Positions 37,736-41,759 of a stretch of DNA of 55,352 bases are shown here, one piece after another. The position numbers were made by a program, and so were the translations under genes. Origin of the DNA: an uncultured Bacilli bacterium (GTDB lineage Bacteria > Bacillota_I > Bacilli_A > RF39 > UBA660); NCBI GenBank assembly GCA_944358405.1, contig CALVQX010000030.1, positions 1-55,352 on the forward strand. Reading direction: 5' to 3'. How positions within the stretch are numbered: position 1 is the first letter of the stretch; each line of letters starts with the position of its first letter. The notes beneath the pieces are model-generated. The model did no database searches. It had not been told where the DNA came from and saw only the letters and a list, made by a program, of their open reading frames with translations.

Positions 37736-38218
37736 CTATGGTCCTGTAGGTCCCGTAGCTCCTGTAGGTCCTGTTGGTCCCGTAGCACCGGTAGGTCCGG
37801 TAACTGTGCTGGCTGCTCCTGTAGGTCCCGTAGCTCCCGTAGGTCCTGTTGCTCCCGTAGCACCGGTAGGCCCTGTCACACCGGTAGCACCAGTAGGTCC
37901 CGTAGCTCCTGTAGGTCCTGTTGCTCCCGTAGGTCCTGCTACTGTACTAGCAGCTCCCGTAGGTCCAGTAGCACCAGTTGCCCCAGTAGGTCCGGTAGCA
38001 CCAGTTGCACCAGTGGTTCCGGTAGGTCCCGTTGGTCCAGCTGGAATTGTTAAGTTTAGTATAAAATTTGGTGATGTTCCCGTAATTGATGCTGTCGCTC
38101 CGGTTCCTGGAGCTCCCGTAGAAACTGTACCAATTGCTAGATTTGGTGCACTTCCTGTTGCTCCTGTTGCCCCACTAGGTCCCGTTGCTCCTGTAGGTCC
38201 GGTAGCACCAGTTGCTCC
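37736..38218 (-). CDS. 3' segment of split BclA-like collagen (GXT) gene
   Basis: GAT/GPT repeats begin abruptly at the 10-bp core; no RBS; ends GPTGP-stop. Confidence 0.88.
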
Positions 38219-38237
38219 TAGTCTATAAACCACAGAA
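38209..38237. other. Left attachment junction of the intervening element (core plus P-type arm)
   Basis: CAGTTGCTCC core, then TAGTCT-ATAAACCACAGAA, inverted relative to the arm at 41397-41421. Confidence 0.88.
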
Positions 38238-38240
38238 TTT

Positions 38241-40214
38241 TTAGATATTCCAAAAAATTGTAATAGCTCTTTGGTTGTTTTTTATTTTACCTACAGTTAT
38301 CTTATTAATAAATTCATTTACTATTTCTTGTGTTAGGATGTCTTGTTGTTGATAGGAGAAGAATTCTTTTTTCTTTTCATTTATTTGTGATGTTTCTAAT
38401 TCATTTTTTATTACTTCTAATCTTTCTTTTAATCTGAATGCCTTTTCTTTGTATTGTGTTTTTAAAAGTAGAAATTCTTCTTTATCTAATATTCCTTGAA
38501 TTTTATCCTCATATAATTTTTTTAATATGTTTTCATTTGCTTTCATTTGTTTTTGTATTTCTTGTTGTTCTATTTTTATTTCTTGATTTTGATTTTTCTT
38601 TCTTTTTTTCTCTTGATATTTTTTTTCTAATAGATCATGATCATAGTATTTATTTAATAATTGATTAAATTCTTGTAAAATATATTCTTGTAATATATCT
38701 AAGTTGATTGCTTTTTGATTATCACAATTTTTCCACTTATTTTGTTTATCTTTACATAATAGGTATTCTGTTTTTTGATGATTAGAGTAACTGCAATTTT
38801 TATGAAGAATATTTCCACAACAAGCACAATATGCTTTTCCATGGAAGATATGTTTTTTCCCTGTTTTTTGTGCACGACTTTTTTCTTTTAATTTTTCTTG
38901 AATTAAGTTCCAAGTTTTATCATCAAAAATTTTTTCAATTGCTTTTTCTTTTACTACCCAATCTTCTGAGGATGTTTTTATACATTTATGATTTTTATAA
39001 CTAATTCTTTTGGTTTTCCCTTGGATTAAAGTACCATTATAGCTTTTGTCTTTCATCATATGATAAATTGTTTTGCCATTCCAACGATATTTTTTTCTAA
39101 TATTGCAAGAACAAATTATTATTTTATTTGATTGTGTAATTATTTGATAAGTAATTTTTTCTTTATTTTCTAGTAAAGTTAGTTCTAATTCAAATTCTAT
39201 TCTTGCTTGTGGTGGTAAATTTTTAATATTACTAGCAAGGAACCAGACGTTTTTAGGAAGTGTTTTATTATCTTCTATTTTGATCCAAGTATTTTCTTTG
39301 AAGTTTAATTTTTTTTCATTTTCTATATCTTTTTTTGTAGTATAAAATAGTTCTATGTTTTCTGGAATAGAAAGAATTTTGATTTTTATTTTTTTATTTG
39401 GGGGTTTTATTTTATGAAGTGATTTTATTTGCTGAATTTTTTTTGCTTGTTCGTTTTTTAAGGATATTCTTACGATATAAGTACCGGTTTTATTTATATT
39501 GATTTTTTCTTTTGTGATCGGTAATTGTAATTTACAACCATTCATTTGTTTATATTCGTAAGGACAAGGAATTTTTTCTTCTTCTAATATGGTCGCAATT
39601 TTTTCTTGTCCATATCCTGCTAGAATTAAGGAAGCTATCTTTTTTAATACTTTACTAGCTATTGGATCAATTAAAAGATGATTTTTATTTTTTGGATCTT
39701 TTAATAGTCCATATTTGGCAAAAGCTGCAGTTGATTCTCCAGCTTTCCATTTTGATCTTAGGGTTGCTTTGATATTATCTGATAAATCTTCTAAAAACCA
39801 TTCATTCACTAAGGCATTGATTTGACGTTGCTTTTTATTTTCTTTTCTTGTGGTATCAGTATGATCTGTAAGACTGATAAAGCGTATGTTCCATTCTATA
39901 AATTTATTATGTAAATATTTTTCTATTGTTTCTATATCTCTAGAAAATCTGGATTGACTTTTACACAGAATAATATCTATCTTTCCATTTTCACAATCCT
40001 TTATCATTTTTTCAAAATCTGGGCGATATGTTCCTATTCCAGAAAAATCTTCATCACAATAGATGGAGGTTACTTTCCAATCCGGATGTTTTTGTACTTC
40101 TTCTAAAAGCATCTGTTTTTGATTTTTTATACTTTCACTAACCATTGTTCCGGCTTCTTTTTCTATATCTTCTTTCGATAATCTTAAATATAGAACAGTT
40201 CTTTTTATGTTCAT
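38241..40214 (-). CDS. Large serine recombinase (SpoIVCA/TnpX-like) with internal insertion
   Basis: YLRLS catalytic motif, DEDFSG...[18 protein letters not shown]...C...C zinc ribbon, coiled coil, I.I.W C-terminus. Confidence 0.95.
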
Positions 40215-40348
40215 TGTTCTTTTTTATTTTCTTCTGTTCTTAGAATCGTTTTTAATAATTTGCCGTTGAATCTTTTTTTTCGTTCTTCTTCGGTAATGTT
40301 TTCATTATGCCATTGATTTATGATATTATAATTTATTTTTTGCTTCAT
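40211..40348 (-). CDS. 45-aa ORF coupled to the recombinase (candidate directionality factor)
   Basis: [45 protein letters not shown]; AGGAGG RBS; ATGA overlap with the recombinase start; absent from the ORF track. Confidence 0.75.
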   Translation of the reverse strand: MKQKINYNIINQWHNENITEEERKKRFNGKLLKTILRTEENKKEQ

Positions 40349-40365
40349 ATTATCCCTCCTAAAGA

Positions 40366-40421
40366 CACTATATTCTTTTTTAACTTTCGTTATTAATAAT
40401 TTGTTTTTTCTCTCATATAGT
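40366..40421. promoter_or_regulatory. Putative divergent sigmaE/K-type promoters
   Basis: CATATAGT (+, 40414-40421) and AATATAGT (-) on either side of the palindrome TTATTAATAA (40390-40399). Confidence 0.4.
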
Positions 40422-40441
40422 GGAATAGGAGGTTTTCATTT

Positions 40442-41368
40442 ATGAATGTTATCGATCGAGAGTTTCAAGAATTGGTTTCTGAAATTAAGGAATTGAGCAA
40501 GATGGAGATATATTATCGAATTAGAAAAAGTTTTGATGCTATTCCTGAAGAAACAAAGATGAGCTGTAGTAATTTTTTTAATCAATTTGGATATTGGGGG
40601 AGATTAGATGTTTTTTCTTCAAATTATGAAGAAATCGAATTAAAAGCGGAAGCTTTATATGAACATATTGATGATTTTGCTTGGCTTTATGATCAATTAG
40701 GAGATTATCGTTCTAAACGAACATTATATGCTATTTTAAATAATTGGTATCGTTATGATTTTGATACTACTTCTCAAACGAGAGAGTATTTGTATGATGA
40801 TTATTTTGATTTAGATTTGGTTTCTTGTGATTCTAATGAAGTGATTGTGGATTTGGGAGCATATACCGGGGATACTGTTGTTTCTTATCTTCATAATTAT
40901 GGGGAAGATTGCTATAAAAAAATATATTGTTATGAAATTACGCCTGCTGTTTTTGAATTATTACAGGAAAATTTAAAAAATTATGCTAATATTGATTGTC
41001 GTCTTCTGGGAGTAGGGGATCAGGAAGAACAGTTATCTTTGATTTCTAATGAAGTTAGTGCTTCGGCTAATACTTTAAGAAAAGATCTTTGTAATGATGT
41101 GATCATGACTACTTTGGATGTGGATATTGATGATGCAATTACTTTGATTAAAGCTGATATTGAAGGATTTGAATATAAAGCTTTACAAGGTGCTAGAAAT
41201 CATATTTTGAAAGACCATCCTAAATTATTAATTTCTGTTTATCATAATAATGAAGATTTATGGAGAATTCCTAAAATGATTCGAGAACTTTCTAGTGATT
41301 ATCGTTTTTATTTACGTTATCGTAGTTCCCCAATTTATCCAACAGAAATTACTTTCTTGGCTATTTAA
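40442..41368 (+). CDS. FkbM family methyltransferase
   Basis: [26 protein letters not shown]....PKL.ISVYH. Confidence 0.92.
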
Positions 41369-41371
41369 ACT

Positions 41372-41400
41372 TATATAGACGCGTGTCTATATATTTTTTT
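41372..41400 (+). terminator. FkbM terminator
   Basis: TATATAGAC-GCGT-GTCTATATA followed by T7. Confidence 0.8.
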
Positions 41401-41429
41401 GTGGTTTATTTCGTGGGAGCAGTTGCTCC
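41397..41429. other. Right attachment junction (P-type arm plus core)
   Basis: TTTTGTGGTTTAT-TTCGTG-GGAGCA-GT-TGCTCC. Confidence 0.88.
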
Positions 41430-41759
41430 AGTAGGACCTGTTGTTCCTGTTGGCCCCGTCGGACCGGTTGATCCTGCACTTCCTGATGTTCCAGGTAGTC
41501 CTTGTGGTCCTGTAGGTCCCGTAGGTCCTGTTGGTCCTGTTGCTCCCGCAGGAATTGAGAAATTTAAAATCGCATTTTGGTTTGTTCCAACATTGCTTAC
41601 TGTAGCTGGTGTTCCTGGATCTTCGGTAGTTGTGATACCGACTGTGATTGTAGCAGGCCCTGTAGGTCCTGTAGGTCCTGTTGGTCCTATGCAGAAAATT
41701 GGTCTTGGTGGTCTAACAGGATGATCACAATTGTTGTTAAAATCGCAGCAATTATTCAT
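41406..41759 (-). CDS. 5' segment of split BclA-like collagen gene (117 aa if unexcised)
   Basis: [23 protein letters not shown]-terminus, GPT repeats that break to APTK-stop right after the core. Confidence 0.88.

Follow-up and report, generated by a model that had tools for sequence, protein, structure and literature searches.

Only a few genes (sigK, spsM, spoVFB, spoVR, gerE and yabG), nearly all of them in cultured Bacillus and Clostridium, are known to undergo programmed DNA rearrangement during sporulation, and the general logic of the elements that split such genes (skin, SPbeta, vfbin, vrin, gin and yin) is already established. In the skin elements of Bacillus subtilis (in sigK) and of Clostridioides difficile (CD1231/CD1234), a mother-cell gene is reportedly split and then restored by excision in the mother cell. 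Here we analyzed a stretch of 55,352 bp from an uncultured Bacilli bacterium (hereafter the window, meaning the whole of that stretch), in which a collagen-like gene on the minus strand lies in two halves on either side of a 3,211-bp element encoding a large serine recombinase. The closest precedent for this arrangement is gin in gerE of Bacillus cereus ATCC 10987, with its GirC recombinase and GirX factor, followed by skin, SPbeta and yin.

As far as the available text of the report on gin goes, gin is likewise a non-prophage element in a sporulation gene, having a large serine recombinase together with a tiny factor lacking known motifs (GirX with 42 amino acids (aa), as compared with 45 aa here) and a short direct repeat at its junctions (9 bp in gin and 10 bp here); it differs in having three recombinase genes as well as further genes, in splitting the gene of a transcription factor and in that its sporulation-time excision was demonstrated both in vivo and in vitro (PMC5595907). 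The present element instead lies in a repeat-coding structural gene, carries one cargo gene and is known from sequence alone. SPbeta, in spsM of B. subtilis, is in the accessible part of its description a serine-recombinase element that splits a mother-cell gene and is removed again by mother-cell excision, thus being an active mobile element and a developmental switch together, as the present family might also be (PMC4191935). Both skin and SPbeta are prophages or prophage remnants of tens of kb that use one fixed site in unique sequence, whereas members of the present family occupy several positions and both orientations in a repeat array, with tandem copies possible (L071 and L074). For yin, in yabG of Clostridium botulinum, the likeness is that a directionality factor was proposed from structure prediction of the recombinase with its factor; yin differs in being prophage-like and unique to one strain, with its excision seen in culture, according to the text available (PMC10747680).

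A full-text literature search turned up no report of such an element splitting a gene of collagen-like or bclA type, in agreement with an earlier note on this DNA made from its letters alone (the sequence-only reading), which had taken the target to be undescribed. In the available portion of a 2026 survey of C. difficile bclA genes, 'interrupted' is used just for assembly breaks and the word recombinase is absent (PMC13188886). What is new is therefore the class of target (repeat-coding DNA, entered at several registers, in both orientations and as tandem copies), the host lineage and a recombinase clade having an extra domain.

It is, in our judgment, very probable that the 3,211 bp represent a pared-down copy, not self-transmissible, from an integrative family which is specific to this lineage and uses Gly-X-Y-coding DNA as its chromosomal attachment site. 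The features of the split gene on which this account builds are the following.

41420-41759, minus strand: 5' part of the collagen-like gene, with its ATG at 41759 (Pfam Collagen, E 4e-8)
37736-38218, minus strand: 3' part of the collagen-like gene, with its stop codon at 37736-37738 (Pfam Collagen, E 1e-13)
41398-41451: FkbM-side junction, consisting of an element half-site (outer 9-bp arm at 41401-41409), the 10-bp core at 41420-41429 and collagen DNA
38187-38240: recombinase-side junction, consisting of collagen DNA, the 10-bp core at 38209-38218 and an element half-site (outer 9-bp arm at 38225-38233)

The two Gly-X-Thr reading frames on the minus strand are halves of one collagen-like gene, with PF01391 (Collagen) matched in both. 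The 5' part has a GGAG ribosome-binding site at 41765-41770, 7 nt before the ATG, and encodes a Cys-rich N-terminus (MNNCC...), a Gly-Pro-Thr run, a non-collagen module of about 38 aa and a second Gly-X-Thr run; as assembled, its frame continues into the element and ends with APTK and a stop codon at 41406-41408. The 3' part consists of Gly-X-Thr runs, a second copy of the ≈38-aa module, further Gly-X-Thr triplets and the stop, and inspection of its sequence by eye found neither a Shine-Dalgarno sequence nor a plausible start codon. The 10-mer CAGTTGCTCC is found in the window only in the two cores and has no copy on the other strand. Removal of one repeat copy with the intervening DNA deletes 3,211 bp, and such excision in silico produced a minus-strand frame of 813 bp, which begins with the ATG at 41759, ends with the stop at 37736-37738 and encodes 270 aa with Gly-X-Thr triplets unbroken across the joint. 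The features claimed in the sequence-only reading ranged from the two fragments flanking a recombinase and an FkbM gene, through the ribosome-binding site and Cys-rich start on one half and the missing ribosome-binding site on the other, to the paired 10-mer and the restored register, and our analyses bore all of them out at the same coordinates.

Serine-integrase sites, about 40–50 bp long, are characterised by imperfect inverted arms on either side of a central dinucleotide that is not palindromic. When the four sites were rebuilt by coordinates and then scored for symmetry, the predicted circle junction had 17 of 22 symmetric positions around a central GT and the rejoined chromosomal site had 11 of 22, also around GT. 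For random window positions the score was 6.2 ± 2.2, and just 0.02% of 20,000 trials came to at least 15; the symmetry of the circle junction is therefore beyond chance. Eight other centre offsets in the core gave just 5–8. Judged by this architecture, the junctions are real serine-integrase sites. The G+C content was 26% for the element, 30% for the window and 48–57% for the collagen halves.

Relatives of the recombinase were searched for in 60 family genomes, then by a scan of genome contigs and by a second scan over metagenome contigs. The best matches among the 60 genomes were proteins of about 540 aa, 50–56% identical in the N-terminal part and encoded outside collagen genes, which first suggested a one-off element; that idea was overturned by the genome-contig scan, which revealed a long-form clade of 12 loci (L064-L075) with full-length recombinase matches at 40–56% identity. 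These loci are in metagenome-assembled genomes (MAGs) labelled as uncultured Bacilli, Firmicutes, Bacillales, Mollicutes, one unclassified bacterium and Candidatus Scybalousia, several of them from rabbit, chicken or mouse gut. An insertion of about 140 aa within the recombinase domain was present in all 12, and in all 12 a conserved half-site followed the recombinase stop codon, with Gly-X-Y-coding DNA beginning within about 35 nt, read in sense in L064-066 and L071-074 and in antisense in L067-070 and L075. A strict test, demanding at least five uninterrupted triplets within 400 nt, was passed by 7 of the 12 long-form loci as compared with 0 of 103 other relatives (taken from both scans, 9 of them too short to judge, and with L116 and L182, which had no plus-strand match, left out); in L066 the flank was too short to judge. 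The metagenome-contig scan with the recombinase returned just short-form relatives at no more than 50% identity, none of them beside collagen DNA. For an empty site in the same species, a metagenome-contig scan using the 137-aa neighbour of the collagen gene gave no match, and the genomes searched included no second species of the genus.

Several of the loci share synteny with the window, through LysM/SleC neighbours in L075 and L068 and through a GT2-TPR neighbour in L064, L069 and L072, and the points of insertion differ, with the element of L068 lying after the first short triplet run and that of the window after the second. Since the target is a repeat array, it can take up elements in different registers, in either orientation or as tandem copies (L071, L074). 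Both element ends could be found at six loci, the window included, and the predicted join was an open Gly-X-Y frame in five of these (window, L069, L071, L073 and L074), having a circle-site symmetry of 12–19 of 22. An unconstrained search for the most symmetric pair of sites gave spurious pairs that were AT-rich or reflected the self-symmetry of collagen DNA, and the search was repeated with a fixed central dinucleotide.

The sequence-only reading had regarded the segment as a minimal device, which did not hold for the family. Its members range from about 2.1 kb (L071, having the small ORF (open reading frame) and recombinase alone) to more than 7 kb, and the cargo includes a type IV coupling protein (PF02534, E 1.8e-31) with a C-5 DNA methylase in L064, an aminotransferase-GNAT fusion in L073, a trypsin-like protease in L072 and, in the neighbouring element of L071, an AAA_14/DUF4143 ATPase. 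One element (L064:3695-8118, L065:1-4424, L066:1-4395) is present in three species-representative MAGs, all of them from a single rabbit-gut study, the L064 copy being 99.8% identical to that of L065 and 99.7% identical to that of L066. About 70 nt beyond the stop codon of the recombinase, similarity between L064 and L065 ends completely, each continuing into a different collagen gene. With such near-identity in different flanks, and with a coupling protein in some relatives, the family is thus mobile, at present or until very recently, and selects collagen-repeat DNA. The copy in the window, by its gene content, is a stripped member of this mobile family, without transfer genes. With regard to L064, L065 and L066, their near-identical element could reflect either a recent interspecies transfer or contigs binned to the wrong genome.

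Two loci have more complex structures. L071 (L071:1048-7178) has tandem elements, where a collagen 5' part is followed by an element with the AAA_14/DUF4143 ATPase and a 531-aa short-form recombinase, then by a collagen piece of about 35 nt with an element end on either side, another collagen 5' part that has a ribosome-binding site and start of its own, the 2.1-kb element (small ORF and long-form recombinase) and finally a collagen 3' part, so arranged that the one 3' part could in principle be combined with either of the 5' cassettes. In L074 (L074:1003-8017) the best site pair (19 of 22 symmetric) encloses 7.0 kb with genes that by their N-terminal sequences are uracil phosphoribosyltransferase-like and permease-like, together with a 748-aa ORF; the same first two gene types adjoin the collagen gene outside the element in L072 (L072:8420-10377), and recombination between collagen genes may have captured chromosomal DNA.

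The element in the window has three genes, listed here together with a hairpin at its FkbM end.

38241-40214, minus strand: large serine recombinase of 657 aa (PF00239, E 1.6e-21, residues 7-160; PF07508, E 4.1e-9; PF13408, E 5.3e-6; phrog_95 integrase, E 5.6e-78)
40211-40348, minus strand: 45-aa ORF, its stop overlapping the recombinase start codon; candidate directionality factor or recombinase partner
40442-41368, plus strand: FkbM-family methyltransferase (PF05050, E 5.4e-10; TIGR01444), the sole cargo gene
41372-41400, plus strand: terminator-like hairpin found by eye directly after the FkbM stop, with a 9-bp stem, a 4-nt loop and seven T, the T-run entering the attachment half-site

No phage or conjugation genes were found in this copy by its ORF list or by Pfam and PHROG scans, in accordance with what had been read from the letters. 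The recombinase is intact over 657 codons, having neither frameshift nor internal stop, and its architecture comprises a resolvase catalytic domain, a recombinase domain split by a beta-sandwich of about 140 aa, a zinc ribbon, a long coiled coil (long helices at 505-609 in the structure model) and a C-terminal beta hairpin. The catalytic Arg11 and Ser13 are invariant among 11 aligned recombinases, and the zinc-ribbon Cys residues are likewise invariant across the family. The all-beta insertion (residues ≈236-376; 39087-39509, minus strand) was present in all 11 aligned long-form relatives and absent from relatives of about 510–540 aa; folded alone it gave a nine-strand sandwich with a pLDDT (predicted local distance difference test) of 90.1 and a pTM (predicted template modelling score) of 0.81, for which Foldseek found no match in the PDB at E ≤ 0.001. 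This sandwich may contribute to recognition of collagen-repeat DNA.

The best solved-structure matches to the catalytic domain were 3g13, a 'putative conjugative transposon recombinase' (E 8.9e-18), and 2mhc, TnpX (E 4.9e-14). These place the enzyme nearest to the TnpX/TndX-type large resolvases of the clostridial transposons Tn4451 and Tn5397, as does a weak C-terminal match to PF14287 (DUF4368; 21.1 bits, below the 25-bit cut-off). TnpX/TndX-type enzymes have GA as their central dinucleotide and are not known to require a separate factor, whereas here the centre is GT/AC, a partner ORF is conserved and the ≈140-aa insertion is present. In tblastn searches of phage and plasmid collections for a possible origin, identity reached at most 32% in phages and 36% in plasmids, with no match covering 80% of the query.

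A homologue of the small ORF, 38–50 aa in length, was found just upstream of the recombinase in all 12 family loci (8 aligned, that of L065 taken from an ORF listing, and those of L072, L073 and L075 read from the DNA with non-ATG starts), and the eight aligned sequences share an invariant K..F..K core. The 45-aa ORF itself had no match in Pfam, NCBIfam or PHROG. When the complex of its product with recombinase residues 366-657 was predicted in three runs, the score was 0.73, as compared with 0.14 for the best of three controls, with contacts agreeing by at least 95% between runs and a partner pLDDT of at least 79; in a benchmark that applies just roughly, since own alignments were supplied, 58 of 80 solved complexes and 2 of 110 mismatched pairs attained this score mark. 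The predicted contacts involve two stretches of the recombinase, residues 507-536 (the base of its coiled coil) and residues 616-657. This modelling supports, and does not prove, that the 45-aa protein acts as a recombination directionality factor.

Homologues of the FkbM cargo gene were found in 9 of the 60 family genomes, and no collagen or recombinase match was obtained by tblastn at these nine loci (±1.5 kb each); the four with ORFs listed had ordinary chromosomal neighbours. The hairpin after the gene was missed by the terminator scan, which called no terminator in the region, because its stem has fewer than three G-C pairs.

The host genome is a bin of 1.32 Mb in 72 contigs, about 90% complete, and the sequencing runs with the organism are chicken-gut and related metagenomes. 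It encodes Spo0A (280 bits) and SpoIVA (691 bits), both above cut-off, together with two sigK/sigE-like sigma factors, the best sigK-like match being a single open frame. By this gene complement the host is a spore-former. The collagen gene has on one side a protein with five LysM domains, a 137-aa protein without known family and a SpoIID/SleB-like protein with peptidoglycan-binding domains, and on the other side a GT2-TPR glycosyltransferase. Upstream of its 5' part is a candidate promoter box.

41780-41788, minus strand: sigmaK/sigmaE-type -10 box (CATAnnnTA), CATATTTTA, 9 nt upstream of the ribosome-binding site

CATAnnnTA is the form of the B. subtilis sigmaK -10 box; its background rate was 0.52 per kb per strand, and it was found at the same distance in six of seven related collagen gene starts (including G077, L075, L068, L073 and L071). 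For C. difficile, the available text of one study gives CATATAAT as the sigmaK -10 box and names bclA1-3 and sleC as sigmaK-dependent (PMC3789822). With a box so placed in related gene starts and with those C. difficile genes depending on sigmaK, it is reasonable to infer mother-cell expression of the collagen gene.

The product had been called BclA-like in the sequence-only reading, a description that holds loosely. Like the BclA exosporium glycoproteins of Bacillus anthracis and BclA1-3 of C. difficile, the gene has a Gly-X-Thr region, a putative sigmaK-type promoter and neighbouring genes for a glycosyltransferase and spore-envelope proteins; it differs in that the rejoined protein lacks a BclA-type globular C-terminal domain and ends in Gly-X-Y triplets (Collagen being its sole Pfam match), having instead a Cys-rich N-terminus and two ≈38-aa modules, none of which matched any Pfam or NCBIfam family. 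An NCBIfam scan of the halves found just collagen-like adhesin models, all far below their cut-offs. The ≈38-aa module (...IGTV.TG.PG...ITGT.PNF.LNLTIP.G), with one copy per half between triplet runs, is conserved in G077 and L072. The sole other collagen-like gene in the genome (G000:C29:8957-9778) is a 274-aa frame with a short triplet run and a non-collagen C-terminal part, a layout nearer to BclA than that of the split gene's product.

An uninterrupted ortholog, which the sequence-only reading had proposed to look for, exists in the closest relative sampled, G077 (SleC-like neighbour 65% identical), where a syntenic collagen gene, divergent from LysM, is open from its start codon to the end of the contig. 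It has the Cys-rich start, triplets and then the same ≈38-aa module, and it spans the region that matches the split.

In the account that we prefer, the element entered the collagen gene by conservative recombination at the GT/AC central dinucleotide. Recombinase and small partner ORF have remained intact, as have the two attachment sites and the two halves of the gene. The 45-aa protein, on the C-terminal coiled-coil region of the recombinase, would switch the enzyme to the excisive direction, whereupon the element would be cut out as a circle and the collagen gene halves rejoined. The likeliest setting for this would be the terminal mother cell during sporulation, with the rejoined gene read from its sigmaK-type promoter to give a spore-surface collagen-like protein and with the forespore chromosome retaining the element, following the logic of skin, SPbeta and gin.

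For the sequencing data, 20 public runs with the organism in 12 studies were available, no RNA run being listed, and four of them (X1, possibly the source sample, X4, X7 and X8) were examined as assembled contigs. The integrated junctions were bridged, with at least 31 nt on each side, by contigs of X1 (both junctions), X4 (both) and X7 (the 41420 junction), which come from three studies; no listed piece of X8 bridged a junction. A joint in X7 from 38213 to 41425 (depth 4.9) was considered as an excision product and rejected, having 12 other letters between its sides; the simplest explanation is that it comes from another strain or species whose homologue is uninterrupted. Other joints, such as that from 37993 to 41500 (7 letters between), had sides of no more than 30 nt and resemble collagen genes of other organisms. 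Among the runs, all five substitutions on the 3' half were synonymous, and X4 had in addition an in-frame 18-nt gain (two more triplet pairs) at 37739, near the 3' end; as evidence for the preferred account this variation is weak, since contigs of other collagen genes can map there.

Misassembly at the collagen repeats, which the sequence-only reading had named as a possible undoing of the whole arrangement, was not borne out, because contigs of public runs bridge the junctions. The genome is indeed a bin of many contigs and incomplete, and collagen repeats do break assemblies, as where the G077 contig ends within its collagen gene; wrongly joined contigs would nevertheless have to recur independently in three studies and to reproduce a specific symmetric site architecture common to the window and 12 related loci, and we therefore regard an assembly artefact as extremely improbable. 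The weighing thus concerns what the element does. For the whole account, including a skin-like excision timed to the mother cell in sporulation, we would give slightly less than an even chance. The entire recombinase clade is tied to a gene with a sigmaK-type box, the copy in the window has lost its mobility genes and yet preserves an intact recombinase, its partner, the sites and the two gene halves, contigs from three studies show the integrated form, and the spore-envelope-type neighbours (five-LysM, SpoIID/SleB-like and GT2-TPR) together with the sporulation genes of the genome also point that way. Excision of SPbeta, gin and yin was in each case linked to sporulation or growth phase, as far as the available texts show (PMC4191935, PMC5595907, PMC10747680). 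Several observations weigh against developmental timing. The exact excision joint (skipping 38219-41429) and the circle junction, both of which the sequence-only reading had proposed to seek in reads, were absent from the contigs of all four runs; contigs drop rare forms, and the missing joint is therefore silence and not refutation. No consistently placed CATA-type (sigmaE/sigmaK) box was found before the small ORF in the family loci, with an exact CATAnnnTA in L072 alone, and the sole promoter-like match before the small ORF in the window was a weak one of sigma-70 type (40396-40367, 9/12), in a region having fewer promoter-like matches than its shuffles (13 as compared with 17.8). Strain differences in the recombinase were non-synonymous in 8 of 10 cases, a small sample, and thus gave no sign of strong constraint. 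Recombinases of TnpX type, which have the nearest solved catalytic domains, are also able to excise without a separate factor. Of the earlier claim of a skin-like programmed rearrangement, conservative site-specific recombination, an intact recombinase and a frame restored in silico stand, whereas for the programmed excision neither an exact joint in the contigs of the four runs nor a recognisable sporulation-type promoter before the recombinase operon was found.

Much of this would equally suit the same excisable element having no developmental programme, as a parasitic or mobilisable element for which collagen DNA is a convenient landing site in a dispensable surface gene; excision would then be sporadic, ending in transfer or loss, and the population would be mostly 'off' with rare 'on' revertants. 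The mobility of the family can explain the insertions without host benefit or developmental role, as evidenced by the element 99.7–99.8% identical in three species-representative genomes with diverging flanks in L064 and L065, by the coupling protein and C-5 DNA methylase of L064 and by insertions in both orientations at different gene positions, and the weak sigma-70-like promoter candidate and the 8 non-synonymous versus 2 synonymous differences in the recombinase fit such a life as well. Of 10 syntenic LysM/SleC loci taken from relatives, 9 also showed no collagen gene (one of the nine with a flank of 1.4 kb), and by that comparison the gene is accessory, and dispensable, in this lineage. 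What an element without a programme leaves unexplained is that its clade keeps solely to a gene whose sigmaK-type -10 box is conserved, that all transfer functions were lost while recombinase, partner ORF and both sites stayed intact, and that the sporulation-gene elements SPbeta, gin and yin, in the texts available, all show excision linked to sporulation or growth phase; we consider this explanation a substantial possibility, yet on balance improbable. The dispensable gene, the non-synonymous excess and the absence of an excision joint from the four runs could also be read as a dead insertion, in which recombination has been lost and the collagen gene is a permanently split pseudogene, from which at most the 117-aa N-terminal fragment is made. 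The locus in L072 has indeed decayed, with the 5' half missing, and that copy is therefore a dead end. In the window, by contrast, the recombinase is open over 657 codons, its catalytic Arg and Ser and the zinc-ribbon Cys are invariant in the family, no mismatch separates the two core repeats and the symmetric half-sites are undamaged, the family has kept the 45-aa ORF, and each half of the gene still has an open frame, for which reasons we find a dead insertion quite unlikely.

Should excision in the mother cell be the correct reading, a collagen-like coat or exosporium gene would constitute a new class of developmentally rearranged gene, adding a structural spore-surface gene to the targets and an uncultured gut lineage with a reduced genome (1.3 Mb) to the hosts, and repeat-coding sequence would be shown to offer an attachment site in multiple copies; the spore surface might then also be diversified, if a single 3' part were combined with different 5' cassettes that each bring a start codon. 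That the clade as such is specialised on the collagen repeats of a sigmaK-driven spore-surface gene in small-genome gut Bacilli, being excised in the mother cell, is a wider proposition that we hold to be unlikely, albeit not negligible. Even without a developmental programme, the clade is defined by an extra beta-sandwich, a conserved predicted partner of 38–50 aa and a short target motif in Gly-X-Thr coding DNA, which makes it of practical interest for serine-integrase engineering. In metagenome bins, split collagen genes of this kind would otherwise be called pseudogenes or misassemblies.

Some further recombinases were seen beside what may be other split genes. In two genomes of the same bacterial family (L011:3006-3350 in G008 and L013:3236-3661 in G004), short-form recombinases, 50–56% identical N-terminally, lie by eye beside fragments of an ABC-transporter ATPase gene, with the 3' part directly after the recombinase in L011 and the 5' part in L013, and this gene looks like another split-gene target. 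The host genome itself has a second large serine recombinase of 532 aa (G000:C21:12017-15392), followed by a 596-aa frame without obvious start that by eye resembles the C-terminal part of a P-type ATPase and may be another interrupted gene.

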